DNA from: Acaryochloris thomasi RCC1774
GTDB lineage: Bacteria; Cyanobacteriota; Cyanobacteriia; Thermosynechococcales; Thermosynechococcaceae
DNA length: 32,000 nt
NCBI RefSeq assembly: GCF_003231495.1
Contig: NZ_PQWO01000007.1
Span: forward strand, 60,001 to 92,000
Direction of reading: 5' to 3'
The notes under the pieces are model-generated. The model searched no databases and was not told the DNA's origin. It was given only the letters and a program-made list of their open reading frames with translations. The position numbers and the translations under genes are program-made. Below are positions 4,501-19,743 of this stretch, piece by piece (within the stretch, counting starts at the first letter, position 1; each line of letters starts with the position of its first letter).

Positions 4501-4752
4501 GTGCTGACTGAACTGCGCCAGCAGATTATCCGTGAGCTAGATGAACCCGAAGTCGAGCAAATGGAGCTGTTTAGCAGTGTAGAAAAGGACCAGCTTGAGC
4601 GAAACTTGAGCAGTTTGCGGCTGCGAATAGAACAGATTCCGCAGGAGATAGAGCAAGAAGCAGACATTATTAAAGCGCGATTTGCCCAGCCCACGCCAAG
4701 GCTGTTTCCGCTGGCGGTAGCCTATTTGGTGCCTCAGAAGTTAATTAAGTGA
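1582..4752 (+). CDS. drmD: DISARM class 1 DrmD, SNF2-family helicase/ATPase
   Basis: 1056-aa ORF with a GTG start. SNF2 motifs are visible: DDVGLGKT (I), LMIVDEAHNV (II), LFLTATPHNG (III), ILLATDAASEGLDLQ (V), QRNGRIDRHGQ (VI). Sits in a locus with drmMI, drmA, drmB and drmC. Confidence 0.85.
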   Translation: MRTISIPEQGQLVDVRQSRFVVTDIKKMQLPALLATSGPQASQHLITLSSVEDDALGQELQVIWELEPGARVYEKAELPEPTGFDRPEWLDAFLDAVRWGAASVADVRNVQSPFRSGIDIEDYQLDPVVRAVQMPRVNLLIADDVGLGKTIEAGLVAQELMLRQRARRILIVCPSSLQVQWQEQMQSKFGLDFRIVNSELMKGLRRRRGIHVNPWGHFPRLITSVDFIKRDRPLRLFREILPAEGESLYPRRFDLMIVDEAHNVAPSGSGKYAIDSQRTAAIRLLEPHFEHKLFLTATPHNGYPESFTALLELLDAQRFARGVSPDPKQLQTVMIRRLKQELPPDDFGKPRFPERTLEAIAVNYTTEERQAHQWLKVYTELRRQGAKDNLTELYATEFVLKLLKKRLFSSPEAFRTTLLQHQKSLRGENSEKKRVAKPSAEILRRQLEQVDEAFADDAVYEEATDDAIATSTRLFHAVTVAEQQLLNQMQDWADQASRLPDAKAQELLDWIATVLRPEGKWGTERVIIFTEYRATQKWLFDLLASEGLASEEKLMTLYGGMDSKDREKVKAAFQANPAISPVRILLATDAASEGLDLQNHCSRLIHYEIPWNPNRMEQRNGRIDRHGQRASAVQIYHFVGRGFEQVALQATPGSKPGELEGDLEFLMRAALKVDTIREDLGKVGPVIASQVEEAMLGRRGALDTAIAEQEAQPLRRLMKFERSVRDRIEQLKEQLGETRRDLRLTPENITAVVKIGLELAGQPELLPTEVPGLGGEAYQLPALQGSWANCSEGLAHPHTEEIRPIVFDPDLARGRDGVVLVHLNHRLVQMCLRLLRAEVWSRQDSSKLYRVTVRPVPTATLDHPVVIAYGRLVVLGGDQQRLHEEIITAGGELKEGRFSRLNVGQIKAALDAAQQIRGREAVPERIETTLQEAWPGHQEALLRSLQVRMDDRTQGLQKKLAERCAKEVADMTAVLTELRQQIIRELDEPEVEQMELFSSVEKDQLERNLSSLRLRIEQIPQEIEQEADIIKARFAQPTPRLFPLAVAYLVPQKLIK

Positions 4753-4818
4753 GTCTCAATGAGGGCTATATAGAGCATTTTTTAATACCTGCTCTCTACT
4801 TTGATTACACCTGTCTAC

Positions 4819-5142: not shown

Positions 5143-5552
5143 GACGGGTCTCCTTGCGAAAGTAATACGATAATTAGCTGCTCTGGTGTGATTGCCTTGA
5201 GTCCTAACGACTTCTGCGCGTTTCTAAAATCTCGGATATTGGAGGTAATCAGAGTGGCCCCGGCATTCATCGCACAGTCAATTACCAGGTCGTCGCCAGC
5301 ATCCGGTGAACTGGGTCGCCATGAAAAGTAAAGGGTAGTGAACTGAGCTTTCGCAACGAGTGTTGCTAGCAAGGGTTTTAGCCGCCGCCATCGAACCGCT
5401 AAGAGCTTTCGCGACAGCACATCTTCGTACTCATACACTAGGGCTGTAGAAATATGCACCGGTAAGAAGCCAGCATTCCAAGCATCGATAATATAGCACC
5501 GCCTACAGTGTCGCTAGTCCGTTATGTTCTAATCATCGCCAACATCAAACAC
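5139..5552 (-). pseudogene. PIN-domain toxin (VapC/TIGR00305-like), with a 5' region disrupted by two in-frame TAG stops
   Basis: The intact ORF 5139-5459 (GTG start) encodes only the C-terminal two thirds of a PIN domain (...YEYEDVLSR..., DDLVIDCAMNAGATLITSNIRDF). In the same frame upstream I read VFDVGDD-TAG(5529-5531)-NITD-TAG(5514-5516)-RHCRRCYIIDAWNAGFLP. This resembles the missing N-terminal strand and helix. Confidence 0.55.
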
Positions 5553-5661
5553 CCTAAAAGTTTCCAGTTTTGCGACGCAGAAACTGGAATGATTGAATCA
5601 CTGCCAAAGGTGGAAAATTCGCCTATCCTGTGGGTTGTTTAGCTGTTTTCAAGACTTACCT

Positions 5662-8600
5662 ATGTCTACTGCTCGTCATCACGCTGAATGGTTATCGCTG
5701 GTTGAGGCTTCGGGGCCGTTTGTGAGTATGCCGGTGCTGCTGAAGGCGTTTCCGCAGGGGCTGGATGCCCACGACCCAGAGGTGATGCGGCAGGTGCGGT
5801 TAGCCCACAGCGAATGGCAAGCCAGTCAGCAGGGGACTGCGCCGGATCGGGGCATTCATGGGGCGTGGGTGGCGTTTGTGCTGCAGGAGGTGTTGGGCTT
5901 TCCGGAGAGTGTGCTGCTGAATGGGCAGGCGGTGCCGTCGGCCCTGGCGGTGACGGTGGCGGAGCAGGGGGAGACGCTGCGGCCTGATTGGGGGGTGGTG
6001 CAGGAAAATAATACGCGGCTGCTGGTGCAGGTATATCCGCCGGGGCAGGATTTGAATAAGGCCGTCAAAGGATCGCGGTGGGCAGCGAGTGCGGCGACGC
6101 GGATGATGGAGCTGCTGCACGGTACGGATGTGCGGCTGGGTCTGGTGACCAATGGGGAGCACTGGCTGCTGGTGAATGCACCGAAGGGAGAAGCGACGGG
6201 CTATATCTCTTGGTACGCGACGCTGTGGCAGGAGGAGAAGCTGACGCTGCGGGCGTTTCGGTCTTTGCTGGGGGTGGAGCGATTTTTTGGGGTTGACGAA
6301 TCGGAGACGATTGAGGCGCTGTTAGCTGAGAGCATCAACTCTCAGCAGGAGGTGACCGACCAGCTCGGCTTTCAGGTGCGCTCTGCGGTGGAAGTGCTGG
6401 TGCAGTCGATTGACCGGGCCGATCAAGATCGGAATCGGGCGCTGCTGGCTGGGTTGCCGGAGACGACGCTCTATGAGGCGGCGCTAACGGTGATGATGCG
6501 GCTGGTGTTTTTGTTTTCGGCGGAGGAGCGGGGGCTGCTGCTCTTGGGCGATCCGGTGTATGACCAGTTTTATGCGGTGAGTACGCTGCGAGAGATGCTG
6601 CGGGAGCAGGCAGATCAGAGCGGGGAGGAGATTTTAGAGCGTAGGTATGATGCATGGTGTCGGCTGCTGGCGATTTTTAGAGCGGTGTATGGCGGCATTG
6701 GGCATGAGGCGCTGCGGCTGCCTGCCTATGGTGGGACGCTGTTTGACCCGGACCGGTTTGCGTTTTTAGAGGGGCGGGCGGCGGGCAGCCGCTGGCAGCG
6801 GGTCGAGGCGAGGCCGATTGAGATCAACAATAGAACGGTGCTGCACTTGCTAGAGGCGCTGCAGTTGCTAGAGGTGCAGATGCCGGGGGGCGGGGGCAAG
6901 GTGTCTCGTAAAATCTCTTTCCGGGCATTGGATATTGAGCAGATTGGGCACGTGTATGAGGGGTTGCTAGACCATACGGCGGTGCGGGCAACAGAGCCGA
7001 TTTTAGGATTGGTGGGGACGAAGAATAGGGAGCCGGAGGTGGCGCTGGGGGCCTTCGACGCCGCTCAGACCTCGGGTGAGCTGCTGAAGTTGCTGAAAAA
7101 GGAGACGGGGCGGAGCGAGTCTGCTTTGCAGAAGGGGTTGGGGGCAGCGGCAGGCGGGACGGCTATCTCACAGGAGTGGAGTGCGTATGAGTTGAGTCGG
7201 CTGCGGGTGGCTTGCGGAAATGATGAGGCGCTGTATGCGCGGGTGCTACCGTTTGCGGGGCTGTTGCGGCTGGATACGTTTGGCTACCCGGTGGTGATTG
7301 CGGGGGGGAGCGTGTATGTGACGCAGGGGAGTGACCGGCGCGATACGGGGACGCACTATACGCCGCGTAGTCTGACGGAGGAGATTGTGAAGTATACGCT
7401 GGAGCCGCTGGTGTATGTGGGGGTGGCGGAGGGGAAGCCGAAAGAGAGGTGGAGGCTGCAGAAAGCGTCGGCGCTGCTGAGCCTGAAGGTGTGCGATATG
7501 GCGATGGGGAGCGGGGCGTTTTTGGTAGAGGTATGCCGGTATCTATCAGCGCGGCTGGTGGAGGCTTGGGAAAGCGCAGAGGCGCAAGAGGTAAGAAGGA
7601 CAGGCAGGATGCCTATCTCACAAGAGGGGGTTGGGGAAGAGGGATTGGAGGTTGCTGAAAAGGGGCAAGAAATTAGAGTGTTGCCGGATGGGTCTCTTTC
7701 TGTGGGAGATGCGGCAGAGCGATTGTTGCCTGCTGACCCAGAGGAACGACTGATTATGGCGCGGCGGCTGGTGGTGGATCGGTGCATTTATGGGGTGGAT
7801 AAGAATCCGCTGGCGGTGGAGATGGCGAAGCTGTCGCTGTGGTTAATTACGCTGCAAAAGAATAAGCCGTTTACGTTTTTAGACCATGCGCTTCGGTGTG
7901 GGGATTCGCTGGTGGGGGTGAGTGTAGAGCAGCTCTGCTACTGGAATATGGATACCTATGAGACAATGCCGGAGCTGTTGGCGAGCAGTATTCGGGCGCA
8001 GGTGGAGGAGGTGTCGCAGATGCGGCGGCAGCTAGAGAATATTTCGGTGGAGACGACGGCGGATCAGGCTGAGAAGGAGCGGCGGCTGGGGCTGGCGCAA
8101 ACGCGGGTGAACGGGCTGCTGTTGGGGGCGGATCAGCTTGTGACGAGCTATTTTGTTTCGAGTAAGAAGAGTCGTCAGGATGATGTGCGGCAGATTATGC
8201 TGCGGACGTATCGGGGTGAGGGGGATGTGCCGGAGGCGCTGCGGGGGGTGCTAGAGAAGCATAATGTGCGGCCTTTTCATTGGGAGCTGGAGTTTCCGGA
8301 GGTGTTTGCGGAGGGGGGTGGGTTTGATGCGATCGTGGGGAACCCACCGTTTCAGGGTGGGCAGAAGATTACGGGTGCGTTGGGAACTGTCTATAGAGAC
8401 TTTTTAGTGAGACAGATTGCGGCAGGGGTGAGGGGAAGTGCGGATTTGTGTGCGTACTTTTTCTTGCGGGCAGATGAAGAGCTGCGAGTAGATGGCGGGA
8501 TGGGGTTGATTGCAACAAACACAATTGCACAGGGAGATACGCGGGAGGTGGGGCTAGATCAGCTTGCGGCAAAGGGGCGGGCGATACCTCGGGCGGTGCC

Positions 8601-9810
8601 GAGCCGGAAGTGGCCGGGGAGCGCGAATTTGGAGGTGGCTCATATTTGGGTGAAAAAGGGAAAGTGGGCAGGCGGCTTTGAGCTGAATGAGAAGTTAGTG
8701 GAGGGGATTACGCCGTTCTTGACGGTTCCGGGGCAGGCGGTGGGCAATCCTGAGCGGTTGGCGGCGAATCAGGAGAAGTCTTTTCAGGGTTCAATCGTTT
8801 TAGGCATGGGTTTTGTTTTAGAGCCAGAAGAGGCTGAGGCGTTGATGGAGAAAGATGCTCGCAACGCGGATGTGTTGTTTCCTTATTTGAATGGACAAGA
8901 CTTGAACTCACACCCGGATCAGTCGCCGAGTCGTTGGGTGATTAATTTCTTTGATTGGCCTTTGGATGCTGAGCATGATGATCTGGAAAAACCGAAGGGG
9001 CCACCCTATGCGGTGGACTATCCTGATTGTTTGGCGATTGTGCGGGAGAAGGTGAAGCCTGAGCGGGATAAGAATAAGCGGAAAGTTCGCCGCGAGAAAT
9101 GGTGGCAATTTGCAGAAAGAGCGGCAGGGCTTTATGGGGCGGTTGAGGGTTGCGATCGCGTTTTGTTAAGAGCGAGAATTTCCAATATCCATTCAGTCAC
9201 ATGGGTGGCTGATAACTGGGTCTATAACGAGAAAGTTGTTGTCTTTCCCAATTCTTCTCTAGCCATTCTTCAATCCAGCATTCATGAGGTATGGGCTAGA
9301 AGATACAGCTCGAGCTTGAGAAAAGATATGCAATATACGCCGTCTGATTGTTTTGAAACCTTCCCCTTTCCCACCCAATACAGCAACCTAGAAGACATTG
9401 GCGAACGCTACTACACCCACCGCCAATCCATCATGCGCACAACCAACCTCGGCCTCACCAAAACCTACAACCGCTTCCACACCCCCGAAGACACCGCCCC
9501 CGACATCACCCAACTCCGCACCCTCCACACCGAAATGGACTCCGCCGTCGCTGCCGCCTACGGCTGGCAAGACTTCGCTCTAAATCACGACTTCCATGAA
9601 ACCAAACAAGGGCTGCGATTTACCATCAGCGAAGCCGCCCGCCGCGAAGTCCTCGATCGCCTGCTGGCGCTGAACCATGAGCGCTATGCAGAAGAAGTAA
9701 AGCTGGGACTGCACGATAAGAAAAAGAAAAAAAGAAAGAGGGCGAAGGCGAAAAAGGCAGCACCTCGCAAAGAAGCACCGCCAGACGATCAGATGAAGCT
9801 GTTCTTGTAG
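5662..9810 (+). CDS. drmMI: DISARM class 1 DrmMI, large N6-adenine DNA methyltransferase (PglX/type IIG-like)
   Basis: SAM motif VCDMAMGSGAFLV. Catalytic motif IVGNPPFQGG (NPPF, N6-adenine class). Helix YGVDKNPLAVEMAKLSLWL. ATG at 5662 (MSTARHHAEWL...) is preferred over the TTG at 5593 given in the ORF track. Lys/Arg-rich C-terminal tail. Confidence 0.85.
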   Translation: MSTARHHAEWLSLVEASGPFVSMPVLLKAFPQGLDAHDPEVMRQVRLAHSEWQASQQGTAPDRGIHGAWVAFVLQEVLGFPESVLLNGQAVPSALAVTVAEQGETLRPDWGVVQENNTRLLVQVYPPGQDLNKAVKGSRWAASAATRMMELLHGTDVRLGLVTNGEHWLLVNAPKGEATGYISWYATLWQEEKLTLRAFRSLLGVERFFGVDESETIEALLAESINSQQEVTDQLGFQVRSAVEVLVQSIDRADQDRNRALLAGLPETTLYEAALTVMMRLVFLFSAEERGLLLLGDPVYDQFYAVSTLREMLREQADQSGEEILERRYDAWCRLLAIFRAVYGGIGHEALRLPAYGGTLFDPDRFAFLEGRAAGSRWQRVEARPIEINNRTVLHLLEALQLLEVQMPGGGGKVSRKISFRALDIEQIGHVYEGLLDHTAVRATEPILGLVGTKNREPEVALGAFDAAQTSGELLKLLKKETGRSESALQKGLGAAAGGTAISQEWSAYELSRLRVACGNDEALYARVLPFAGLLRLDTFGYPVVIAGGSVYVTQGSDRRDTGTHYTPRSLTEEIVKYTLEPLVYVGVAEGKPKERWRLQKASALLSLKVCDMAMGSGAFLVEVCRYLSARLVEAWESAEAQEVRRTGRMPISQEGVGEEGLEVAEKGQEIRVLPDGSLSVGDAAERLLPADPEERLIMARRLVVDRCIYGVDKNPLAVEMAKLSLWLITLQKNKPFTFLDHALRCGDSLVGVSVEQLCYWNMDTYETMPELLASSIRAQVEEVSQMRRQLENISVETTADQAEKERRLGLAQTRVNGLLLGADQLVTSYFVSSKKSRQDDVRQIMLRTYRGEGDVPEALRGVLEKHNVRPFHWELEFPEVFAEGGGFDAIVGNPPFQGGQKITGALGTVYRDFLVRQIAAGVRGSADLCAYFFLRADEELRVDGGMGLIATNTIAQGDTREVGLDQLAAKGRAIPRAVPSRKWPGSANLEVAHIWVKKGKWAGGFELNEKLVEGITPFLTVPGQAVGNPERLAANQEKSFQGSIVLGMGFVLEPEEAEALMEKDARNADVLFPYLNGQDLNSHPDQSPSRWVINFFDWPLDAEHDDLEKPKGPPYAVDYPDCLAIVREKVKPERDKNKRKVRREKWWQFAERAAGLYGAVEGCDRVLLRARISNIHSVTWVADNWVYNEKVVVFPNSSLAILQSSIHEVWARRYSSSLRKDMQYTPSDCFETFPFPTQYSNLEDIGERYYTHRQSIMRTTNLGLTKTYNRFHTPEDTAPDITQLRTLHTEMDSAVAAAYGWQDFALNHDFHETKQGLRFTISEAARREVLDRLLALNHERYAEEVKLGLHDKKKKKRKRAKAKKAAPRKEAPPDDQMKLFL

Positions 9811-9931
9811 AGATTGCTCTAATCAACTCACACACAAGGGGACCGCGAGTGGCTTCTCTGTATAAACAAAAATTTATTTTGCTAGCGGTATCAAATTGGG
9901 GGGCAGGGAGGCGAATGCAGGGAGTGGTAGG

Positions 9932-10279
9932 TCAGAGTTCGATGGTCTGACGCTGCGAATAGATTTCTTTTACCAACAAATCCCGAAGCTCTTCAGCAAT
10001 ATCATTCGGTGGATTACCGGCAAGCGCTCGTCCAATCAAACGCTCTGCCTCTCTAAATGCACCAGATGCGATCGCAAGTGCAGCCGCACTACGATGCAGT
10101 ACCGCGCGAGTCGGCTCAAGGTCAAACTGATCAGCCACCAAATCAGCCGCCGCCCGCTCTTTCTCAAAAGCAGCTCTTGCCAGCTCAACAACGCGGTTTT
10201 TCTCGCCCTGCCGTCTGGCGAGTACCGCCAGATCAACCAGTTCCATCGATTCTTTATGAAGCGTTTCTACGTCCTGCAT
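9932..10279 (-). CDS. Hypothetical all-helical protein, 115 aa, TPR-like feel
   Basis: Its ATG overlaps the end of upstream ORF 10267-10632 by 13 nt. Ala/Glu/Arg/Leu-rich helical sequence (AAALAIASGAFREAERLIGRALAGNPPN). I recognise no family. Confidence 0.55.
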   Translation of the reverse strand: MQDVETLHKESMELVDLAVLARRQGEKNRVVELARAAFEKERAAADLVADQFDLEPTRAVLHRSAAALAIASGAFREAERLIGRALAGNPPNDIAEELRDLLVKEIYSQRQTIEL

Positions 10280-10632
10280 TTTTCAACAACATGCACCCTA
10301 GGCGTACTAAACTCAACCACAGAAACGTAGCCCGGTGCTGCCGTATCCGAAGGGCTAATCTGTCTTAGCTTTATATTAACTCTAGATTGAATAACAGCTT
10401 CAGCACCTCTCCGAATGCCCGAAACCTCTAAGCGAGCCTTCCTCTGAAATCCACCCCCTGCACTATCGATTGACCCAAGCCAAAAGTCAAAGCCAAAGCC
10501 CTTCCCCTTCACCGAACGCTCGATCACAGTGAGGTTCGTCAGGTAAGGCATCACCAACGCTGCAATACCGTAAGCTCCATACTCAGTAGCCACTTCTCGA
10601 TCCGCATTGAACCGCCGCATAATGTCATCCAC
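10267..10632 (-). CDS. Hypothetical protein of 121 aa, with a weak PD-(D/E)xK-like pattern. May be the C-terminal part of a 189-aa gene split by TGA.
   Basis: GTG at 10632-10630 is in frame with, and two codons after, the TGA of ORF 10639-10836. An internal ATG lies at 10620. The pattern EYGAYGIA...GFDFWLG...ARLEVSGIRRG loosely resembles the E...D...ExK nuclease core, with Ser in place of Lys. This is speculative. Confidence 0.5.
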   Translation of the reverse strand: MDDIMRRFNADREVATEYGAYGIAALVMPYLTNLTVIERSVKGKGFGFDFWLGSIDSAGGGFQRKARLEVSGIRRGAEAVIQSRVNIKLRQISPSDTAAPGYVSVVEFSTPRVHVVEKCRT

Positions 10633-10638
10633 CGCATC

Positions 10639-10836
10639 TCATTTCAGCTCAATCTCGCAAGGCTGAATACCTTCAACTTGCAGCACAATCGGCTCTATAT
10701 GCCCCTGTTCATCTAAACAAATAGCAGCCGCCTCAGCACAGGATGCTCCGAAAGTAAGTGACCAGCCAGGACGTTCTGGTTTTGTCTGACACAAATCGTT
10801 CAGGTGAAGTGCGACTACTGACTGACTATCCATCAT
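10639..10836 (-). CDS. Hypothetical 65-aa ORF, possibly the N-terminal part of a gene interrupted by an in-frame TGA
   Basis: ATG start 200 nt from the divergent helicase gene. Ends at TGA 10639-10641, in frame with the next ORF. No family recognised. Confidence 0.4.
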   Translation of the reverse strand: MMDSQSVVALHLNDLCQTKPERPGWSLTFGASCAEAAAICLDEQGHIEPIVLQVEGIQPCEIELK

Positions 10837-10871
10837 TGAATCTATCTTTTACAGTGATTCTGGCCTGACTG

Positions 10872-10894
10872 CTTTGGCATTCTACCTGCCAAAG
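10872..10894. promoter_or_regulatory. Perfect 8-bp inverted repeat CTTTGGCA-N7-TGCCAAAG in a divergent intergenic region, a candidate operator
   Basis: Read directly from the sequence. It lies in the 200-bp gap between minus-strand ORF 10639-10836 and plus-strand gene 11037-13151. A TAAAAT hexamer at 11002-11007 is a possible -10 box for the plus-strand gene. Confidence 0.3.
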
Positions 10895-11036
10895 ACATCC
10901 GCATACAGAGGTGTTGAATGATGTTCCTAAGGTCTCGTTACAATCACGCAACAATCCGCTAATTCTGACCGTAAGCAACGCTGCCTTCTGAGAAATAGCG
11001 CTAAAATGCCAAGGACTTTAGCTATGTAGTCTTTAG

Positions 11037-13151
11037 ATGTCCTTTGAGCTGCTCTACAAGCCCACCTTCACCAACCAGCTCCTCACTATTCCTCAAGATC
11101 GTCTTCGTCAGGTTTTAGAAAAAATTGAACTCCTGCGCGAAAACCCCAAACCCCACGGCAAACTTAAGAAAAAGCTCCACGGCTACAAAGGCAACATTTA
11201 CCGCCTGCGCTCCGGCGATCAGCGCATCATTTACACCTACGGTAACGGCTGGGTTGCTCTCCTTGGGGTAGATGCGCGCAAAGATGTGTACAAAGGCGAT
11301 AAGCTGGTCGCGGGTGAAACCGAGCTAGACACCAGCAGTCTGCCAGACATGCAGGATTTGCTCACGCCAACGCCCGCTCCGCCTACAGCTCAGAGAAAGC
11401 CCACCGTAGAGCAACTTGAAAACTACCTCCCGGTGCAGCTCACGCCAGATTTTCTCAAGCGGCTGCTGGTGCCCGCCCAGTTTTTTGACGCTCTCACCGC
11501 CTGCAAAACCCTCGACCATCTCACCAGCGCTGCCATTCCTGAACCCTTGCGTGAGCGCGTTTTCGATGCCGTCACCACGCCCAACTTCGACCAGGTTCTC
11601 AGCCAGCCCGACCTAATTGCAGGCGCTGATGAACTGCTCAAGTTCAAAGAAGGTAACCTGCTCGGTTTTTTACTGAAGCTCAATCCTGAACAAGAAAAAT
11701 ATGTGACCTGGGCCATTAAGTCCAAAGGCCCTACTCTGCTGAAGGGTGGCCCCGGCACTGGCAAAAGCACCGTCGCCCTCTATCGCGCCCGCGAAGTCCT
11801 CGATCGACTTAAGGCCGAAGGCGTTGCTCGGCCCAAAATCTTGTTCACCACCTATACCAATGCCTTGGTGAAGTTTTCGCAGCAGCTTCTGACCCAGCTT
11901 CTTGGTACAGATGCTAAATTCGTCGATGTCAAAACCGCCGACAAAATCGCCTATGCCCTGGTCGTGAAGGCCACCGGCAAGCCTGCGATCGCCAGCAGTA
12001 CCCAGCAAAAACGACTGCTGAAGTCAGCTCTGGTAGATGCGATCTCATCTCTCCCTGGCAATCGCCTCCAGCAGCAGGCCCAGCGGCTCATTCTTCAGCG
12101 GCTCCATCCCGACTACCTGCTTGAAGAACTCAACAGCGTCATCACGGCCAGAAACCTACAATCCCTGGCCGATTATGAATCCACCTCTCGCAGCGGACGT
12201 CGCGTTCGTCTCAACAAAACCCAGCGGCAAGCCGTCTGGCATTTGCATCAGCACTTTACTCAGCAGCTCAGCGAACAGTCTATAGAAACCTGGCCCCAGT
12301 TGCGCAACCGAGCGCTGAAAATCTTAGCGGCTAGCGATACGCCGCTGGTATACGACGCCGTTATCATCGACGAAGCTCAAGATTTAGAGCCGAATGCGCT
12401 GCGGCTGCTTGCCCAGCTCTGCCGCCAGCCCAATCGCCTCTTCATCACCGCCGATGCCAACCAGTCCATTTACGGTAGTGGATTCCGCTGGGCCGATGTG
12501 AGTGAATCACTGAAGTTTGTGGGGCGTACCGGCATTCTGCGCGTCAACCACCGCACCACCCAAGAAATTGATGCCGCCGCCCATAATTATCTGTACGACG
12601 GCAGCTTAGATAATGAAACTCTGGAGCCACAGTACATTCACAGCGGGCCACCGCCCGCCATTCGTGCAGTGCGCGATCGTGAACAAGAAAGCTACCTGCT
12701 GGCCCAGTTTTGCCGCGCTGCCGCCCGCGAATTTCGCTTGGGCATGGGCGCTTGTGCCATTCTCACCCCCAGCGATAAAGCAGGTAAGGCCCTCGCCGAT
12801 CAGCTCTGCTACCTCGGTGTAGAAAGCCACTTTATGGCCAGCAAAGATCTTGATCTCAACCGCAAAGGGGTGAAGGTGTTGCCACTCAAAGCGGCTAAAG
12901 GATTGGAGTTTCCGATAGTTGCGATCGCAGGCTTCTTTGACGGTGTCTATCCCTACATTCCCAAAGGCACCTCAGACCTCGAAATTCAAGAAATTTTGGC
13001 CCGCGAACGCCGCACCCTCTTTGTGGCCATGACCCGCGCCATGCGAGCGTTACTGGTTGTGGTTCCCGCCGCTCGGCCTCAGCGCAAGCCCAGTCCGTTA
13101 CTACAGTCCTTTGACTCTGACTTTTGGAATTTGGGAAAGACCGACGCATGA
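11037..13151 (+). CDS. Fusion protein: N-terminal RelE/ParE-family toxin-like domain plus SF1 UvrD/Rep-like helicase
   Basis: Residues 1 to about 88 (MSFELLYKPTFTNQL...LRENPKPHGKLKKKLHGYKGNIYRLRSGDQRIIYTYGNGWVALLGVDARKDVYK) match the RelE/ParE toxin pattern. Helicase motifs follow: LLKGGPGTGKST (I), VIIDEAQDL (II), FITADANQSIYG (III), LRVNHRTTQEI (IV), KAAKGLEFPIVAIAG (V), LFVAMTRAMRAL (VI). TGA 13149-13151 overlaps the drmA ATG. Confidence 0.85.
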   Translation: MSFELLYKPTFTNQLLTIPQDRLRQVLEKIELLRENPKPHGKLKKKLHGYKGNIYRLRSGDQRIIYTYGNGWVALLGVDARKDVYKGDKLVAGETELDTSSLPDMQDLLTPTPAPPTAQRKPTVEQLENYLPVQLTPDFLKRLLVPAQFFDALTACKTLDHLTSAAIPEPLRERVFDAVTTPNFDQVLSQPDLIAGADELLKFKEGNLLGFLLKLNPEQEKYVTWAIKSKGPTLLKGGPGTGKSTVALYRAREVLDRLKAEGVARPKILFTTYTNALVKFSQQLLTQLLGTDAKFVDVKTADKIAYALVVKATGKPAIASSTQQKRLLKSALVDAISSLPGNRLQQQAQRLILQRLHPDYLLEELNSVITARNLQSLADYESTSRSGRRVRLNKTQRQAVWHLHQHFTQQLSEQSIETWPQLRNRALKILAASDTPLVYDAVIIDEAQDLEPNALRLLAQLCRQPNRLFITADANQSIYGSGFRWADVSESLKFVGRTGILRVNHRTTQEIDAAAHNYLYDGSLDNETLEPQYIHSGPPPAIRAVRDREQESYLLAQFCRAAAREFRLGMGACAILTPSDKAGKALADQLCYLGVESHFMASKDLDLNRKGVKVLPLKAAKGLEFPIVAIAGFFDGVYPYIPKGTSDLEIQEILARERRTLFVAMTRAMRALLVVVPAARPQRKPSPLLQSFDSDFWNLGKTDA

Positions 13152-16100
13152 ACATCATCCAGCTCCCGGCCCAGCTCCCTGGCGTTCTCAACCTCAGCGC
13201 CGTTAATCAGCAGCTTAGAACCCACGCCGCTCAGCTAGACTGGAGCGCCGTTGTTAACCCTGAAGGGCCGCAGTTGGCTCAGTTGCTCGCGGGGTTAGAT
13301 CTCTCTGACCATGCGGAAAGCTTGGGCTTAGATACAGTTCTGGCAGATGAGCTGGGCGATGCGATCATGGCCTATTTCGACCAGGCCGATCCGCCTCCTG
13401 AACCCCCTAAGAAGAAAGCTACCGCGCCAGGTAGTGCGCTCACGCCAGAAGTCTGGCAGCAGCAGGAGCTATTCGAAGCAGAGCCGCTACAGCTACCCCC
13501 AATTAGAACCGCCTCTCAAGCAGACAAAACAATTGACCTAGATTTCTACGAAGAACAGCCTGCAGAAGCGGTTCCCGATCGCATTTTGCAGGCTTTCACG
13601 CCCTATCAGATTCGGCAGGAGCTTGAAGCTAGGGTCGTCAAAGATCTCTTGGGACCAGCCCAAGGCCCTCAAGAAGAACTTGATGTCGATCGGGTGAGCG
13701 ACCGCTACTTAGTCGGGCTATTGGCCCCTCAAAAGCGAGACCGTGAGGCTCCAATTGACGCTCTTTTAGAACTACAGGATCCACTAGAAGTTGCCGGAAT
13801 AGAAACCATCGAAGACGGCAGCAGCGAACAGACCCGCACCGCCACCAAGACTATCTTTCCCTCTTCTTTGGGGATGACCTTCTGCGTGAGTCACGAAGCT
13901 GAAGCGATTTACGTTATCGCCGGATGGGGCCAATATGAGCGCACTAAAGGCGAATATCAAGAAACCGATAAAGGCAACCCTAAACTAATCTGGAAGCGCT
14001 ACCCCATTCGCAAACAGTCCCCATCCATTCCCCTGCGCGCAGGCACTCTCACGGACTGGCGTATTCATGAAGACTTCGCCGTCTTTGTAAAAGGCAAAAT
14101 TCGCCGCCAGCAAGGCTGTTGGATGATCTCGTTGTTTTTGGTCAATGATCGCACTGAACCCGAAAAGCACGCCGATAGTGCTTGGCTTTTTCAACCTGAG
14201 CTTTCGGTGAAATCGGCAACAGAACAAACAGATATCTTTCTCAAAAAGCCCCATCGCCGCTCTGCTGACCACAAGCTAGATCCGGTTTACTATGGCGAAG
14301 AGCAAATGATGAATATGCTCTATCGTCAGCAGGTCGAGTTTGCCGTTGGTCACGGTGTCGGCGTTCATGCAAGCGTTTTACCAAACGATCCGACTCGGGC
14401 AACTCAGCTCGCAACTACGGTGGTTCCCGTTTCTGAAGTGCCAAAGTCTACGCCGCCCACAGCCGCAGAAGAGCCTGCCTTAAAGGGCTTAGTGCTAGAG
14501 ATGAAAGTGCTTGCGGGGCTAATGCCCGACGCTTTGCCCGATCAGCTAGCGGCTTTGCCGATGGCCTATGAGCAATGGATACAGGGGCAGCGTGATCGCT
14601 TAACGGACCCTGATGAGGGATTAGAAGACTATCAAAGCAGTGCGCATGAGGCGCTGGAAAAGTGCGATCGCGCCCTGGCTCGTATCCGGGCAGGCATCGA
14701 AACCCTACGCACTAACCCCCAAGCCGCTCGCGCCTTTCTGTTTATGAACCGGGCCATGTATCTGCAGCGAGTGCGCTCTATTTATTCCAGCAAAAAAAGG
14801 CGTGGGGAGGCGATCAACCTAGATGCCATAGATTCGCCGAAGTGGTACCCCTTTCAGCTCGCCTTTATTCTGTTGAACTTGCCGAGCACCACCGATCTGA
14901 CGCATCGCGATCGCTGCCATCCGACTGAAGCTATGTCAGACCTGCTTTGGTTCCCGACAGGCGGTGGTAAAACCGAAGCTTATCTTGGCCTTGCAGCCTA
15001 CACTATTGGTCTTCGCAGGCTTCAGGGCACCATCGCCGGACGTTCAGGGGCCGCAGGAGTTGCCGTGCTCATGCGCTACACCCTCAGGCTGCTCACCTTA
15101 CAGCAGTTCCAGCGAGCCACCGTCCTCATCTGTGCCTGTGAGGTGATCCGCCGTGAAGACGTAGAAACCTGGGGTGAAGAGCCTTTTCGCATTGGCCTGT
15201 GGGTAGGGATGAAAACTACTCCAAACCGAACGCAAGACAGCGAGGCTTACGTCGAAGCGCTCAAGGCTCGCAGCCTGCCACCCAGTGGTGGCTCCCCCCA
15301 TCAGCTCACGAGCTGCCCCTGGTGCGGAACCGAGATTGATGAAGGCAGACACATCAGCGTGAGTTCCTTCAAAAAAGGTAAAGCCCGCACCCTCGTTCAC
15401 TGTGGCGATATCCTTGGGCACTGTCCCTTCAGCCGCAAGCAAGCTAAAGAAGAAGGTCTGCCGGTCGTAGTCGTCGATGAAGAGATTTACCGGCGGCTGC
15501 CGATCCTGCTGATTGCCACCGTTGATAAGTTTGCTCAAATGCCCTGGAAAGGTGAAACGCAGATGCTCTTTGGACGGGTGAATGGGTATTGCGATCGCCA
15601 CGGTTATCGCTCTCCTGAAATTGAAGATAGCGACAGCCATCCAGCTAAATATGGCTTGCCCAAAGCCATGACTAAATCAATCAACAATCTTCGCCCGCCC
15701 GATCTGATTATTCAAGATGAATTGCACTTGATTAGTGGCCCCTTGGGCACCCTCGTTGGCCTATACGAAACCGCCATCGACCAGCTCGCTTCCTGGGAAA
15801 TAGACGGCAAAACAGTCCGGCCCAAGGTAATTGCCTCCACTGCAACGATTCGGCAGGCACAGTCTCAGATGCACGATCTCTTTTTGCGAAAAGTAGACGT
15901 GTTCCCACCTCAGGGGTTAGACATTAGCGACAACTTTTTCTCTCGCCAGCGCTCCCCCGGTGAAGACTACCCCGGCAGAAGGTATTTAGGGATTTGTGCC
16001 ACAGGACGCCGCCTAAAAGCCGCCACTATCCGCGTCTATACCGCGATACTTGCCGCCTCCCAAGATATGTTTGAGCGAGCCGGTGACAAGGCCGATCCGT

Positions 16101-17053
16101 GGATGACTCTGGTGGGCTACTTCAATTCCATGCGAGAACTAGGCGGCACCCGCCGACTCATAGACGATGACATTCAGCAGCGCCTCAACAAAATGGATCG
16201 GCGTGGACTCTCTAACCGCCGTCAGCTGATGGTCGAAGAACTCACCTCCCGAAAATCTTCAACGGATATTCCTAAGGTGCTCGACTGGATGGAAACCCCT
16301 TTCGTCGGTGAGCGAAAGCGCAGTAAAGATCGCCCCACCCCTCTTGATGTGTTGCTCGCCACTAACATGATTTCAGTCGGAGTAGACGTGGGCAGGCTGG
16401 GCATCATGGCCGTCACTGGTCAGCCCAAAACCACCGCCGAATACATTCAATCTACGTCCCGAGTTGGGCGTCAGCACCCCGGTCTTGTTGTCACTATCTT
16501 CAACTGGGCTAGACCCAGAGATCTTTCTCACTATGAGCGATTTGAACACTATCATTCCACGTTCTATCAGCATGTAGAAAGTCTTTCTCTCACGCCTTTC
16601 TCCCCGGGGGCAACCGATCGCGGCTTAGCGGCGCTGCTTGTGTCTCTCGTCCGGCTGAATAATGAAGAATACAATCTCAATAAGTGGGCTAGCCGCATCC
16701 GCCGAGATGATCCCTATATTCAAACCGCCATTCAACAAATTGTAGAGAGGGCTTGGCACGTGAGCGGCGATCCTGCTGTGCGAGATTTTGTGCAGCGCGA
16801 ACTCGACCATCGCCTAGACTACTGGCTCGCCCAAGCTCAAGATACTGAGGGCGGCAAAGAACTCGGCTATAAAACAGCCAAAGATGACGTTACCCTTGGC
16901 TTGCTGGAGCAACCTGGCAGTGAGGGATTGCAGCCGTTTACGTGCCTTAATTCCTTGCGCAATGTAGAACCTGCCATTGGCCTCATTCTCAATCCACAGG
17001 TTCCTGACGACGATACCAGCAGCCCCCCTCAGCCCATGCCCGTAACACCTTAA
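13148..17053 (+). CDS. drmA: DISARM DrmA, SF2 DEAD/DEAH-type helicase with a large N-terminal region
   Basis: Walker A FPTGGGKTEAYLG. DExH box IIQDELHLISGPLG. Motif VI YIQSTSRVGRQHPG. Immediately followed by a DUF1998 gene. ATG at 13148 (ATGA overlap with the upstream stop) is preferred over the TTG at 13124. Confidence 0.88.
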   Translation: MNIIQLPAQLPGVLNLSAVNQQLRTHAAQLDWSAVVNPEGPQLAQLLAGLDLSDHAESLGLDTVLADELGDAIMAYFDQADPPPEPPKKKATAPGSALTPEVWQQQELFEAEPLQLPPIRTASQADKTIDLDFYEEQPAEAVPDRILQAFTPYQIRQELEARVVKDLLGPAQGPQEELDVDRVSDRYLVGLLAPQKRDREAPIDALLELQDPLEVAGIETIEDGSSEQTRTATKTIFPSSLGMTFCVSHEAEAIYVIAGWGQYERTKGEYQETDKGNPKLIWKRYPIRKQSPSIPLRAGTLTDWRIHEDFAVFVKGKIRRQQGCWMISLFLVNDRTEPEKHADSAWLFQPELSVKSATEQTDIFLKKPHRRSADHKLDPVYYGEEQMMNMLYRQQVEFAVGHGVGVHASVLPNDPTRATQLATTVVPVSEVPKSTPPTAAEEPALKGLVLEMKVLAGLMPDALPDQLAALPMAYEQWIQGQRDRLTDPDEGLEDYQSSAHEALEKCDRALARIRAGIETLRTNPQAARAFLFMNRAMYLQRVRSIYSSKKRRGEAINLDAIDSPKWYPFQLAFILLNLPSTTDLTHRDRCHPTEAMSDLLWFPTGGGKTEAYLGLAAYTIGLRRLQGTIAGRSGAAGVAVLMRYTLRLLTLQQFQRATVLICACEVIRREDVETWGEEPFRIGLWVGMKTTPNRTQDSEAYVEALKARSLPPSGGSPHQLTSCPWCGTEIDEGRHISVSSFKKGKARTLVHCGDILGHCPFSRKQAKEEGLPVVVVDEEIYRRLPILLIATVDKFAQMPWKGETQMLFGRVNGYCDRHGYRSPEIEDSDSHPAKYGLPKAMTKSINNLRPPDLIIQDELHLISGPLGTLVGLYETAIDQLASWEIDGKTVRPKVIASTATIRQAQSQMHDLFLRKVDVFPPQGLDISDNFFSRQRSPGEDYPGRRYLGICATGRRLKAATIRVYTAILAASQDMFERAGDKADPWMTLVGYFNSMRELGGTRRLIDDDIQQRLNKMDRRGLSNRRQLMVEELTSRKSSTDIPKVLDWMETPFVGERKRSKDRPTPLDVLLATNMISVGVDVGRLGIMAVTGQPKTTAEYIQSTSRVGRQHPGLVVTIFNWARPRDLSHYERFEHYHSTFYQHVESLSLTPFSPGATDRGLAALLVSLVRLNNEEYNLNKWASRIRRDDPYIQTAIQQIVERAWHVSGDPAVRDFVQRELDHRLDYWLAQAQDTEGGKELGYKTAKDDVTLGLLEQPGSEGLQPFTCLNSLRNVEPAIGLILNPQVPDDDTSSPPQPMPVTP

Positions 17054-17063
17054 ATATTGAGCG

Positions 17064-18929
17064 ATGAATACTGAACGATACAAAGTCGGAGAGCTTCGCC
17101 CCAGCCAAATTATGTTTTCCTTTGGGATTGGCGCGGTGGTTGATCTGCCCAATCTCTCGGTGATGGTGATGGGCTTGAATGAGTGGGACACGGCTCTCTC
17201 CGATCCGCTGGCTGAGGAGCGATTGCTTGCAGCCGTGTGCGAAAAGCTAGGCTCACAGGTGCAAAAGCTGATCCCGCCCCCTGTGCCGTTGAGCGATCCA
17301 AGGGGGGCGATCAGTCCGCTGGGTCAAGCTGCAAAAGTGGGTATTCCTGTCTCGCCGTTCCCTGGCTGGGGGGTGTGTCAGGCTTGTCGGTTGCTGGCTC
17401 CCTTCAGCAGCAGTATGTTCACCCTCAAAAACGACCTCTATCGCCCTGACAAAACTCGCTATATCCACGGTAACTGTACGAAGTCGGGCAAATATCCCCC
17501 CACCGTTATTCCCGCCAGATTCTTGGTGGCCTGTAGCCAAGGTCATTTAGATGATTTCCCATGGCTATACTTTATCCATCGGGGTCAAGGTGAGTGCCCG
17601 GGACGACTACGGTTAGAAGAAGCAGGGATTTCAGGCTCGGCGGCTGATGTGATTGTCAAGTGCGATCGCTGCGGTGCATCCCGCTCAATGGCCGCAGCCT
17701 TTGGTAACACTGGTCAACAAAATATGCCCCAATGCAGAGCCCGTCATCCGCACCTGCGCAACTTCCACGACGACGGTTGCTCAGAGCAAATGAAATCCAT
17801 TTTGCTGGGGGCTTCTAATAGCTGGTTCCCAGTCACCCTCCCGGTGCTTTCGATTCCCGGAACCAGCAATTCCCTCGGTCAGCTTGTCGAAACCCACTGG
17901 GCCACGCTCAAAGAGATATCTGATGCCTCCCAGGTTGATCTGCTGCGGCGAATTGGCCAGCTCAAGGCCTTCTCTCAATATTCAGATATAGACCTCTGGC
18001 AAGAAATCCAAAGACAGCAGTCTCCCAATCCTGCTCAATCAGAAGACGTCAGAAACCTGAAGTTACCTGAATGGGAAGTATTGTCGAATGCCAATCCAGA
18101 CCTGAACACAGCCAACTTTCGTCTAAAGCCAGAAGGCCCACCCACTGGCTATGGCACCTATTTCACCAAAACTGTGCTCGTTGAACGGCTCCGCGAGGTG
18201 CGCGCTCTGATCGGTTTTACACGCATTGAATCTCCTGGAGACCTCAGCGATATCGGCGATATTAATGATGTTACTTTAGCGCCGCTCAGCCGAGAGCTGC
18301 CCAAGTGGGTTCCGGCTAGCGACATTCGCGGAGAAGGTATTTTTCTTCAGTTTCGTGAAGATGCGATCGCAAACTGGATAGAGCGCTATCCTGCCTTAGA
18401 AGCCTATGAAGAACAAAGCCACATGGCCCACACCCAATGGCGCTGCGCCCGCAATATTGATAACCCAGCCGAAAATTTTCCAGAACTGCGATATATGCTC
18501 CTTCACTCCTTTGCTCACGCGCTCATGCGTCAAATGGCTATTGAGTGTGGCTACGCAGCGGCCAGCCTACGGGAGCGCATCTACTCAAGCCGTCGAGGAG
18601 ACGATGTCTTAATGGCCGGCATCTTAATCTATACGGCCTCTCCAGATAGCGAAGGCACCCTGGGCGGCTTAGTCGGACTTGGGAAACCCGTCGTGCTGGG
18701 ACGACACATCGACCAAGCCCTCGAACAAATTGGCCTGTGCGCCTCCGATCCGCTGTGTGCCGAACACGAGTCACTGCAGGATGGCACCCTCCACGGCTCT
18801 GCTTGCCATGCCTGCCTCTTTAGCCCTGAAACCTCCTGTGAGCGCGGCAATAAGTATCTTGACCGAGCCCTGCTTGTGACAATGGTGAATCAAACCACCG
18901 AAAACTTTGCCTTTTTCCAGCCGGAGTAG
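17064..18929 (+). CDS. drmB: DISARM DrmB, DUF1998-domain protein
   Basis: Starts 11 nt after the drmA stop. Several Cys/His clusters (CQACRLL, HGNCTKSG, VKCDRCGASR). C-terminal DUF1998-type zinc-binding segment CASDPLCAEHE...HGSACHACLFSPETSCERGNKYLDR. Confidence 0.88.
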   Translation: MNTERYKVGELRPSQIMFSFGIGAVVDLPNLSVMVMGLNEWDTALSDPLAEERLLAAVCEKLGSQVQKLIPPPVPLSDPRGAISPLGQAAKVGIPVSPFPGWGVCQACRLLAPFSSSMFTLKNDLYRPDKTRYIHGNCTKSGKYPPTVIPARFLVACSQGHLDDFPWLYFIHRGQGECPGRLRLEEAGISGSAADVIVKCDRCGASRSMAAAFGNTGQQNMPQCRARHPHLRNFHDDGCSEQMKSILLGASNSWFPVTLPVLSIPGTSNSLGQLVETHWATLKEISDASQVDLLRRIGQLKAFSQYSDIDLWQEIQRQQSPNPAQSEDVRNLKLPEWEVLSNANPDLNTANFRLKPEGPPTGYGTYFTKTVLVERLREVRALIGFTRIESPGDLSDIGDINDVTLAPLSRELPKWVPASDIRGEGIFLQFREDAIANWIERYPALEAYEEQSHMAHTQWRCARNIDNPAENFPELRYMLLHSFAHALMRQMAIECGYAAASLRERIYSSRRGDDVLMAGILIYTASPDSEGTLGGLVGLGKPVVLGRHIDQALEQIGLCASDPLCAEHESLQDGTLHGSACHACLFSPETSCERGNKYLDRALLVTMVNQTTENFAFFQPE

Positions 18930-19743
18930 TCCTTTGCGACCCCTCTCCCCTCGGCTGCTCGCCCACATTCATCGAGTGGCTCAGCAGTTACCACAGTCGG
19001 TGCTCTCAACCGTGGCTAATTTTCTTGCTGACGTTCCTCAGGCAACTGATAGCAAAACGGCTTGGCTGCCTTTGCTTCAGCAGCTCCCTAAGCCTGTTTG
19101 GCGGCGAGCTTTCACGGATTTATTAGCCGTTTGGTCTGAGGACAATCCTGTATTACAAGGCGAATCTCTTGCGACAGCTTTATGCTCTGCGCATTACAGT
19201 ATTGAGCGCGCTGAAGAAGCGCTTAATATAGAAATTGTTTGGACAGGGCCAGAGGTCTCAAGAATTCCCGTCCGCCGCACAGAGCAGGTTTTGCTACAGC
19301 TCATTCGCGTCGCTTCAGAGGAGCTGACTTTGGCAAGCTTTGCGCTTTACAAGGTTCCTACACTCACCCAGGCCCTCATTGCTGCTTTAGATCGAGGCGT
19401 TCAAGTGCGGATTATTGCAGAAACGACTGCAGGCGACACCGTCGTACCCTTTGGCGTTAAAGCAGGGCTCGGTCAAGAAGTTGCTATGCGAGCGGAAGTC
19501 TACGAATGGGATAAAGCTAAAAGGCCTAAAGATAAAGCCGGTCGGCAGGGCTCTTTGCATATGAAAGTTGCGATCTCAGATCGTCAACGTCTTTTTATCA
19601 CGAGTGCTAATCTCACGGGCTATGCTATGTTGCTCAATATGGAAATGGGACTTTTAGTAAATGGCAAAGCCTTATCTTGTCAGGTCTCGGAGCATTTCGA
19701 TCAACTTATTCAGCAAGAAATCATTGCCTTGGTCGATCATTAA
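18907..19743 (+). CDS. drmC: DISARM DrmC, phospholipase D (Nuc-like) family nuclease
   Basis: Single HxK(x)4D(x)6(T/S)xN motif: GSLHMKVAISDRQRLFITSANLTGYA. The start is uncertain: TTG 18907 overlaps the drmB end, and TTG 18934 or GTG 18976 are alternatives. Confidence 0.82.
   Translation: MPFSSRSSPLRPLSPRLLAHIHRVAQQLPQSVLSTVANFLADVPQATDSKTAWLPLLQQLPKPVWRRAFTDLLAVWSEDNPVLQGESLATALCSAHYSIERAEEALNIEIVWTGPEVSRIPVRRTEQVLLQLIRVASEELTLASFALYKVPTLTQALIAALDRGVQVRIIAETTAGDTVVPFGVKAGLGQEVAMRAEVYEWDKAKRPKDKAGRQGSLHMKVAISDRQRLFITSANLTGYAMLLNMEMGLLVNGKALSCQVSEHFDQLIQQEIIALVDH

Follow-up and report, generated by a model that had tools for sequence, protein, structure and literature searches.

What does a RelE-like toxin domain do when it is joined to a helicase, lacks an antitoxin and is encoded within a DISARM defense locus? 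This question is raised by a gene of Acaryochloris thomasi RCC1774 (assembly GCF_003231495.1), which we analyzed within positions 60,001 to 92,000 of contig NZ_PQWO01000007.1, forward strand; this whole stretch of 32,000 nucleotides is referred to as the window, and coordinates are counted from its first letter. The gene, hereafter the fusion gene, lies directly 5' of drmA and encodes a RelE-like domain followed by a UvrD-like helicase. An earlier reading made from the letters alone (the sequence-only reading) took its product for either an undescribed fifth DISARM component or an embedded abortive-infection effector. We hold, with modest confidence, that it is an ArmD-type protein that is accessory yet tightly integrated in the drmA-drmB-drmC module, and we propose that it uses its RelE domain as an RNase.

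An ArmD-type fusion of a RelE-family domain and a UvrD-like helicase

The closest functional precedent is found in ARMADA type II, a sister system of DISARM composed of armA (SNF2), armB (PglX-like methyltransferase), armC (YprA-like helicase) and armD, the product of the last being described as a "GajB-like helicase with N-terminal RelE-like domain" (10.1101/2025.09.15.676423). BLASTP aligns the fusion protein with E. coli ArmD (WP_000218177.1, taken from the EDL933 record NZ_CP008957.1; strains EDL933/NCTC 12900) at 25% identity and E=3e-40, collinearly over residues 11-689 versus 14-701. The N-terminal domain of ArmD scores 29 bits against a hidden Markov model of the family N-terminus, where the best of 300 shuffles reached 6.2, and the middle domain gives a marginal 6.5 bits (best shuffle 3.9). 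With homology to ArmD over its full length, the fusion belongs to a kind of protein that is already known; it can no longer be called undescribed, as ArmD has been published both in a 2025 preprint and in mBio and is essential in ARMADA II. Defense by that system needs all four genes and the Walker A lysine of ArmD, the K266A substitution abolishing it, and is direct and non-abortive, without sign of translation or metabolic shutdown (10.1101/2025.09.15.676423); armD is also required in EDL933 (mBio 2026, PMC13463889). The Walker-motif residues of ArmD have their counterparts in K243 and D445 of the fusion protein.

The sequence-only reading recognized a complete RelE/ParE fold in the first 88 or so residues, and profile searches and structure prediction bear this out. 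Taken alone, the window sequence gives a sub-threshold match to Pfam ParE_toxin (PF05016), with 17.4 bits against a cut-off of 23 and profile positions 4-87 of 89 covered, and all of the diverse family members searched (17/17) match the model, the best at E=2e-8. A family profile built from 17 diverse homologues matches P. horikoshii RelE (1wmi) in the PDB over the whole domain at E=3.9e-11, followed by Mtb RelE1/RelE2, M. jannaschii RelE3, YoeB and E. coli RelE. AlphaFold2 (AF2), run on residues 1-92 with a 40-sequence alignment of 23-76% identity, returned a model with a predicted local distance difference test (pLDDT) of 90.3, a predicted template modeling score of 0.83 and the strand and helix order given in Table 1. 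The top PDB folds found with this model in Foldseek are RelE, YafQ and YoeB (template modeling score, TM, 0.69-0.76), with Cami1, a CARF-RelE protein, also among the matches (TMq 0.72) and ParE appearing first at rank 26. The assignment of the N-terminus to the RelE-family fold is solid. A ParE-type gyrase poison was considered and rejected, as ParE structures rank under those of RelE, YafQ and YoeB and the family conserves the Arg/Tyr positions of the RelE type.

Residues R56, R58, R63, Y66, R81 and Y85 show little or no variation across 120 close and 117 distant homologues. In an hmmalign alignment, R56, R58, R63 and R81 of the fusion protein fall on K54, R56, R61 and R81 of E. coli RelE; Y85 corresponds approximately to RelE Y87, which falls just beyond the end of the alignment and was positioned manually. 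These positions (R56, R58, R63, R81, Y85) align with R58, R60, R65, R85 and Y89 of aRelE. Relative to the RelE catalytic set K52, K54, R61, R81 and Y87, all but K52 have invariant equivalents in the clade of the window protein, that of Y87 being approximate, and such sets vary within the superfamily. The ArmD clade of ARMADA retains R58, R63, H81 and Y85 in 118/118 sequences, while position 56 is S or R and position 66 is mostly L. The histidine at position 81 of this clade parallels the one used by YoeB and YafQ. Such a pattern of conservation suggests a functional nucleic-acid site, short of proving catalysis; the RNA-cleavage role that we assign to the RelE domain is inferred.

Between this domain and the helicase, the sequence-only reading had placed a linker of roughly 130 residues. 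The region is better described as a predicted disordered stretch of about 40 residues (88-128), which differs in length and sequence among homologues, and a conserved helical domain (~129-215) that is specific to the family. The helical domain reaches a pLDDT of ~78-85 at residues 130-170 in the full-length AF2 model, and its C-terminal motif, FLLKL(N/D)PEQ, runs directly into the helicase. A search of Pfam with the middle domain (residues 126-216) found no relatives and a PDB profile search returned only a repeat-protein artefact; most of the representative matches described below cover the RelE domain and the helical domain as a single stretch.

The superfamily 1 (SF1) helicase that had been read after the linker is well supported. 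Pfam UvrD-helicase (PF00580) matches residues 215-494 (E=1.5e-23, 84.3 bits, cut-off 23) and UvrD_C (PF13361) residues 603-674 (E=4e-16, 59.7 bits, cut-off 25.6), AAA_19 is also above its cut-off, the helicase motifs are intact, and the GxGKS and DEAQD motifs are invariant among homologues. Foldseek matches this part with PcrA, UvrD and Rep at E ~1e-14. Scores against the UvrD/Rep/PcrA equivalog models are more than tenfold under their cut-offs, and the fusion protein is not an equivalog of these helicases. The top PADLOC model for the helicase part is NERD+UvrD, with GajB models down to E=4e-21.

Coupling to drmA and absence of an antitoxin

The open reading frame (ORF) of the fusion gene is real, and the motifs quoted from it in the sequence-only reading are all found at their residues (KLKKK at 42-46, RLRSGDQRIIY at 56-66, ARKDVYK at 80-86). 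Its TGA (13149-13151) shares bases with the ATG of drmA (13148-13150), as had been seen. The further claim of a C-ending codon usage like that of drmA, drmB and drmC holds for the first two and fits drmC less well: the fraction of codons ending in C (C3) is 0.40 in the fusion gene versus 0.33 in drmA and drmB and 0.21 in drmC. The codon-frequency Pearson correlation of the fusion gene is 0.84 to drmABC and 0.30-0.50 to drmD/drmMI, with a weaker value for drmC (r 0.66). A compositional break is also seen within the DISARM locus, in which drmD and drmMI prefer codons ending in G (G3 0.45-0.52, C3 0.14-0.15) and the fusion gene, drmA and drmB prefer codons ending in C (C3 0.33-0.40, G3 0.23), as do the flanking genes of either strand. 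The two halves of the locus (1582-9810 versus 11037-18929) seem to differ in history.

No antitoxin-sized ORF lies 5' of the fusion gene on the same strand, where only ORFs of 26 residues (10911-10991) and 36 residues (10758-10868) occur; the statement that a 14-codon ORF was the only one in 10837-11036 was mistaken, and the conclusion drawn from it, that an antitoxin is lacking, stands. No conserved small neighbor gene was seen in the ~25 related loci examined. A scan of 9700-11150 for promoters and terminators found sites no more commonly than in shuffled sequence, and none within 10837-11036. The three minus-strand ORFs at 9932-10836 were weighed as a cognate antitoxin and rejected: they have no family matches and are absent from related loci, and they are a separate two-gene cassette that is present on cyanobacterial plasmids too. 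Homologues are labeled, on the basis of Pfam and COG, either 'mRNA-degrading endonuclease RelE of RelBE toxin-antitoxin system' or 'UvrD-helicase domain-containing protein', labels that would suit a classical type II toxin with an unrecognized antitoxin or a housekeeping repair helicase that stands beside DISARM by chance. We regard both as very improbable given the lack of a conserved small neighbor in those loci, the low equivalog scores, and a defense context that recurs in several phyla.

Homologues and their genomic contexts

More than 120 full-length homologues of 57-89% identity, mostly cyanobacterial and carrying the JGI name 'SF1 helicase/RelE', surround the window protein, whose nearest named relative is that of Synechococcus sp. 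PCC 7335 (about 86-88% identity). A second set comprises 120 diverse fusions of ~700-715 residues, for most of which PF05016 is recorded. A search with the first 215 residues matches 558 representative clusters (50% identity, E<=0.001), and the full-length proteins among these are mostly of ~690-740 residues. A scan of genome contigs, which was diluted by a generic helicase motif, recovered ~17 true family loci.

Among 15 homologues of at least 45% identity with an informative downstream flank, drmA is the next gene 3' in 14 (loci L001-L007, L010, L011, L082 and L084-L087), followed by drmB and usually by drmC; in most of them drmMI is found upstream, together with drmD where the flank is long enough. 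They come from Cyanobacteria, Chloroflexia, Ktedonobacteraceae and a metagenome-assembled genome whose protein clusters with one from Blastocatellia (apparent Acidobacteriota). The one exception, in Chlorohelix, has a PD-(D/E)XK nuclease and a second UvrD downstream. On a Rhodothermales contig, drmMI is directly 5' of the homologue and the downstream flank is missing. The ATGA overlap with a downstream YprA-type gene is found in 12/17 loci, among them one on a Pseudanabaena plasmid and an McrBC/YprA locus of a gammaproteobacterium. The placement of the fusion gene as the first gene of the right-hand unit, made in the sequence-only reading, is thereby upheld. In a rough neighbor-joining tree the DISARM-linked copies form a single clade. 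Distant homologues also lie 5' of YprA-type helicases (L012, L014, L092, L102), and a fused YprA-DUF1998 helicase follows the homologue in the McrBC-linked cassette L012, on the Pseudanabaena plasmid L102 and in the DISARM-like locus L092. The contexts of distant homologues are otherwise varied and include a BREX locus, positions beside PD-(D/E)XK nucleases and solitary positions.

Individual loci show further variation. In Scytonema hofmanni UTEX 2349 (L006, 9614-12046) the homologue is split within the RelE-like domain into ORFs corresponding to residues 1-42 and 40-701, which may reflect a frameshift or a pseudogene. A plasmid of Oscillatoria nigro-viridis PCC 7112 (L094, 12944-18869) carries class 1 DISARM without the fusion gene, and after its DUF1998 gene, in the place expected for drmC, the clamp and clamp-loader genes dnaN, dnaX and holA are annotated. 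On a plasmid of Pseudanabaena galeata (L095, 15031-15577), a DISARM locus without the fusion gene has a RelE-family BrnT/BrnA toxin-antitoxin pair inserted between its drmB and drmC genes.

Evidence against integration and alternative explanations

A number of observations weigh against the account of an integrated ArmD-type protein with a working RNase. As to the domain itself, K52 of E. coli RelE has no equivalent (it aligns with G52) and ArmD has S at position 56; the ArmD mutants in the ARMADA papers concern the Walker motifs only; and in the full-length AF2 model, made from a shallow alignment, the N-terminus has a pLDDT of 50-74 and contacts between the RelE domain and the helicase are unreadable. 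As to the context, homologues also adjoin PD-(D/E)XK nucleases (L008, L091), occupy a BREX locus between brxC and the N6 methylase gene pglX on a plasmid of Deinococcus sp. NW-56 (L103, 7995-10016), and stand alone among housekeeping-type genes (L013, L015, L016, L093). Class 1 DISARM without the fusion gene was found in 7/8 sampled plasmid-borne loci, including ones with DrmA 61% and 55% identical to that of the window, and in Serratia a class 1 DISARM functions in its absence (10.1101/2021.12.28.474362). As the fusion gene is missing even where DrmA is up to 61% identical, the DISARM core does not need it, and to name it a fifth DISARM component, in the sense of an obligatory part, goes too far. 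The eighth sampled locus, a DISARM-like one from Rhizobium, has a NERD protein in place of drmC and an unrelated UvrD-like gene upstream. This gene, which lies 5' of a DrmA-like gene, was considered as a further case of the fusion and rejected, since it shares helicase motifs only and has no RelE domain.

One rival account is of a RelE-like domain that is not a nuclease and instead binds nucleic acid or serves for docking, for example by recruiting the helicase to ribosomes or transcripts or by binding a RelB-like segment of DrmA or ArmC, with the enzymatic work left to the helicase and to the DrmC/PLD or Vsr nucleases. The missing K52 equivalent, the variation of the ARMADA clade at positions 56 (S/R) and 66 (mostly L), the absence of translation or metabolic shutdown in ARMADA II, and the doubts of the CoCoNuT authors about the activity of CnuH RelE-like domains, taken up below, all point this way. 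We nevertheless consider such a role unlikely, as the invariant residues match the active-site positions of RelE in the pattern R...R...(R/H)...Y and the clade-wide exchange of R81 for H resembles the catalytic variant of YoeB and YafQ. Basic RNA-binding residues would be conserved in a non-nuclease domain too, and residue conservation discriminates only weakly between the two accounts.

The observations on context bear on whether the fusion gene may be an autonomous single-gene defense or abortive module nested in a cargo hotspot, whose helicase senses foreign DNA and frees the RelE domain independently of DrmABC. The solitary, nuclease-side and BREX copies fit an autonomous module. The BREX copy encodes 673 residues at 32% identity over residues 2-701 with the RelE-type residues kept, and is followed by an HNH endonuclease and DarT; the solitary clade (L013, L015, L016, L093, L090) has 33-37% identity, without a YprA partner or an antitoxin-sized neighbor, and one of its copies adjoins a type III-B (Cmr) CRISPR locus. 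In addition, DISARM loci without the fusion gene exist, and drmMI and drmA are separated by a cargo slot that in other loci holds PIN, HEPN, NERD-UvrD, AAA_15/21 ATPase, AAA_15/21 with DUF4435, and E2/JAB/ThiF genes. An autonomous module nonetheless seems rather unlikely to us: the fusion gene keeps its place next to drmA at the edge of the slot whereas other cargo changes, the ATGA overlap recurs across phyla, codon usage in the window is like that of drmA and drmB, the DISARM-linked copies are one clade in the rough tree, and ARMADA II needs the homologue and is non-abortive. The last point also weakens the abortive-infection effector of the sequence-only reading, although DISARM loci that carry the fusion may differ from ARMADA II in this respect.

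Proposed mechanism and significance

We return to an ArmD-type protein integrated in the DrmABC module and consider how it may act. In this protein a flexible linker and the family-specific helical domain tether a RelE-family, RNase-like domain to an SF1 ATPase/helicase of the UvrD/GajB-like type. By analogy with ARMADA II, the fusion protein would work with the YprA-type helicase (DrmAB), and the controlling step may be the ATP-dependent engagement by the helicase of unmodified DNA of an invader or of DNA ends. Less confidently, we suggest that the RelE-like domain may be a competent RNase restrained in cis, so that an antitoxin would be unnecessary, and that could be freed or positioned only when the helicase or DrmAB is engaged. 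It might then cut invader RNA locally, acting on nascent or ribosome-bound transcripts. Gene expression of the invader would thereby be blocked directly, without a cell-wide abortive shutdown, against which the non-abortive character of ARMADA II argues. A wider and, on balance, doubtful extension is that such proteins are a portable RNA arm for DNA-modification-based immunity in DISARM, ARMADA, BREX and McrBC-linked YprA cassettes, in which an antitoxin-free RelE nuclease, inactive while held in cis, would be triggered on unmodified invader DNA by its helicase, alone or with a YprA-type motor, and would cut nascent or ribosome-bound transcripts of the invader at coupled transcription-translation, putting a toxin fold to direct, local and non-abortive use.

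The RelE active-site set of the DISARM-linked clade is more canonical than that of E. coli ArmD, and this clade is therefore a good test case for the part played by a toxin-type RNase domain in non-abortive defense and for the way in which such a domain stays harmless with no antitoxin. Current annotation passes over the gene: DISARM finders leave it unassigned, and PADLOC 2.0 scores only GajB and NERD+UvrD models for it.

The DISARM locus and other features of the window

The five defining genes of class 1 DISARM are all present in the window, in canonical order and on one strand according to PADLOC (Table 1). The start of drmMI is likely the ATG at 5662, as the PADLOC alignment begins at residue 24.

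Table 1. Coordinates of the DISARM genes and of the parts of the fusion gene in the window
Feature	Coordinates	Strand	Basis or remark
drmD (SNF2 helicase)	1582..4752	+	PADLOC DrmD E=0
drmMI (MmeI/Eco57I-type N6-adenine methyltransferase)	5593..9810	+	PADLOC DrmMI E=0; Pfam Eco57I, MmeI
Variable cargo slot, drmMI to fusion gene; here a two-gene cassette	9932..10836	-	Without family matches
Fusion gene (ArmD-type RelE-like/UvrD-like)	11037..13151	+	ATG start, 704 residues, complete ORF
RelE-family domain, residues 1-88, b1-a1-a2-b2-b3-b4-b5	11037..11300	+	Profile, AF2, Foldseek, residue census
Variable Pro-rich linker, predicted disordered, residues 89-128	11301..11420	+	AF2 pLDDT <50 at 88-128
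Family-specific helical domain, residues 129-215	11421..11681	+	Conserved in all clades
UvrD/PcrA/Rep-type SF1A helicase core, residues 215-675	11679..13061	+	Pfam, PADLOC, Foldseek
Walker A, G237-S244	11745-11768	+	Helicase motif
Motif II, D445-D449	12369-12383	+	Helicase motif
ATGA stop/start overlap of fusion gene and drmA	13148..13151	+	Read from sequence; translational coupling
drmA (YprA-like helicase)	13148..17053	+	PADLOC DrmA models E=0
drmB (DUF1998/MZB)	17064..18929	+	PADLOC DrmB 9e-80; Pfam MZB
drmC (PLD nuclease)	18907..19743	+	PADLOC DrmC 1.6e-122; Pfam PLDc_2

In the cargo slot of the window, the minus-strand ORFs 10639-10836 (65 residues) and 10267-10632 (121 residues) are in the same frame with one stop (10639-10641) between them, and together they match one 180-residue gene on plasmid pANACY.01 of Anabaena cylindrica; the stop could stem from a nonsense mutation or from an error in sequencing. 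The ORF at 9932-10279 (115 residues) has 48% identity to the downstream neighbor of that plasmid gene. As far as can be judged, this cassette has no part in the function of the fusion gene. The same slot holds variable cargo elsewhere (9811-11036 compared with L082, L084-L087, L094, L097, L099 and L100). PCC 7335 carries DUF559, HIRAN and PIN genes there, and other loci carry a NERD+UvrD gene, a 754-residue AAA_15/AAA_21 ATPase, transposases, XisH/XisI or a GIY-YIG nuclease. Further cargo consists of HEPN_Apea, M78/HTH and Prok-E2/JAB/ThiF genes, and of an AAA_15/21 ATPase accompanied by a weak, sub-threshold DUF4435 match that looks PARIS-like.

Between drmD and drmMI, two minus-strand ORFs overlap, one HicB-like (4819-5142) and one with a PIN_3 domain (5139-5459); they probably form a toxin-antitoxin pair within the DISARM locus. 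A tRNA-Pro(cgg) gene lies at 806-879, 0.7 kb 5' of drmD; an att-like copy of its 3' end was sought in the window and was not found. A direct repeat of ~115-170 nucleotides and 77-78% identity (1136-1250, 19755-19869) brackets the whole 18.6-kb DISARM locus, and each copy (repeat regions 1121-1300 and 19740-19883) is a small minus-strand ORF with the pattern ...RHR(R/K)LGE.IAVWRDGEV.ILPP.QIPV...; these repeats may be island boundaries or recombination sites. Beyond the locus, the plus-strand gene at 23954-25915 encodes a 653-residue protein with EF-hand, ferric-reductase transmembrane, FAD-binding and NAD-binding domains. It has a markedly low G+C content of 0.43 versus 0.52 for the window, and its architecture looks like that of a NOX5-type calcium-regulated NADPH oxidase.

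Comparison with known systems

Class 1 DISARM is defined by drmD, drmMI, drmA, drmB and drmC, and the fusion gene is not included in that definition as relayed from Ofir et al. 2018 in 10.1101/2021.12.28.474362; the sequence-only reading was right to place it outside the published set. The window locus departs from this scheme by a sixth gene directly 5' of drmA, in the arrangement drmD-drmMI-[slot]-fusion-drmA-drmB-drmC, and by the cargo between drmMI and the fusion gene and the PIN/HicB-like pair between drmD and drmMI. The canonical DISARM loci of Serratia, Deinococcus AJ005 and Nocardia are without the fusion gene. Our literature search found no published account of the fusion as a conserved gene 5' of drmA in class 1 DISARM, none of its ATGA overlap with the downstream YprA-type gene, and none of the RelE-UvrD family in BREX loci or as a solitary gene.

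The ribosome-dependent mRNA interferases of the RelE family (1wmi, T. thermophilus RelE 2khe, E. coli RelE, YoeB, YafQ) resemble the N-terminal domain in fold and profile over its whole length. The window domain differs from them in having no RelB-type antitoxin, in forming the N-terminus of a 704-residue helicase protein, and in not conserving K52. GajB of Gabija is likewise a UvrD-like SF1 ATPase in defense, and the ARMADA authors call ArmD GajB-like; GajB, however, has no RelE-like domain, the best fold matches of the fusion helicase are PcrA/UvrD/Rep and not GajB, and no GajA-like partner gene was found in the window with Pfam or PADLOC.

Cami1 has no antitoxin and is activated by its own sensor domain. 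It combines a RelE fold with that sensor in type III CRISPR defense (PDB 8phb, 8phj), and its structure was solved ribosome-bound. Its sensor is a CARF domain that binds cA4 and not a helicase, and identity is ~10%, so that the likeness is one of mechanistic analogy, not kinship. The RTL domain of CnuH in CoCoNuT is RelE/colicin D-like and is fused to an SF1-type helicase (eLife 2024, PMC11090510), and its authors state that it has no sequence conservation with characterized RelE and that its activity is uncertain (PMC11090510). Compared by description only, CnuH differs in that the RTL domain is internal and that the helicase family and the operon are other ones.

ArmD is the system component most like the fusion protein. 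Both have 704 residues and comprise a RelE-like domain, a middle region and a UvrD/GajB-like helicase, without an antitoxin; the genes of both are accompanied by those of an SNF2 helicase, of a PglX/MmeI-like methyltransferase and of a YprA-type helicase, and overlap the YprA-type gene by the 4 nucleotides ATGA. The order is reversed, the fusion gene lying 5' of the YprA-type gene in the window and armD after armC, in last position, in ARMADA. DrmA and DrmB are split and accompanied by the PLD nuclease DrmC in the window, whereas ArmC is a fused protein with Vsr/EEP domains, and positions 56 and 81 are both R in the clade of the window protein, against S/R and H in that of ArmD. The fusion and its requirement for defense were already known from ARMADA; what is new here is a class 1 DISARM with an ArmD-type sixth gene, in the opposite order. 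An ArmD-type protein is thus a component shared between DISARM and ARMADA, essential in ARMADA II and, in one lineage of DISARM that spans several phyla, conserved as the gene just 5' of drmA, with relatives that extend to a BREX locus and to McrBC-linked YprA cassettes.

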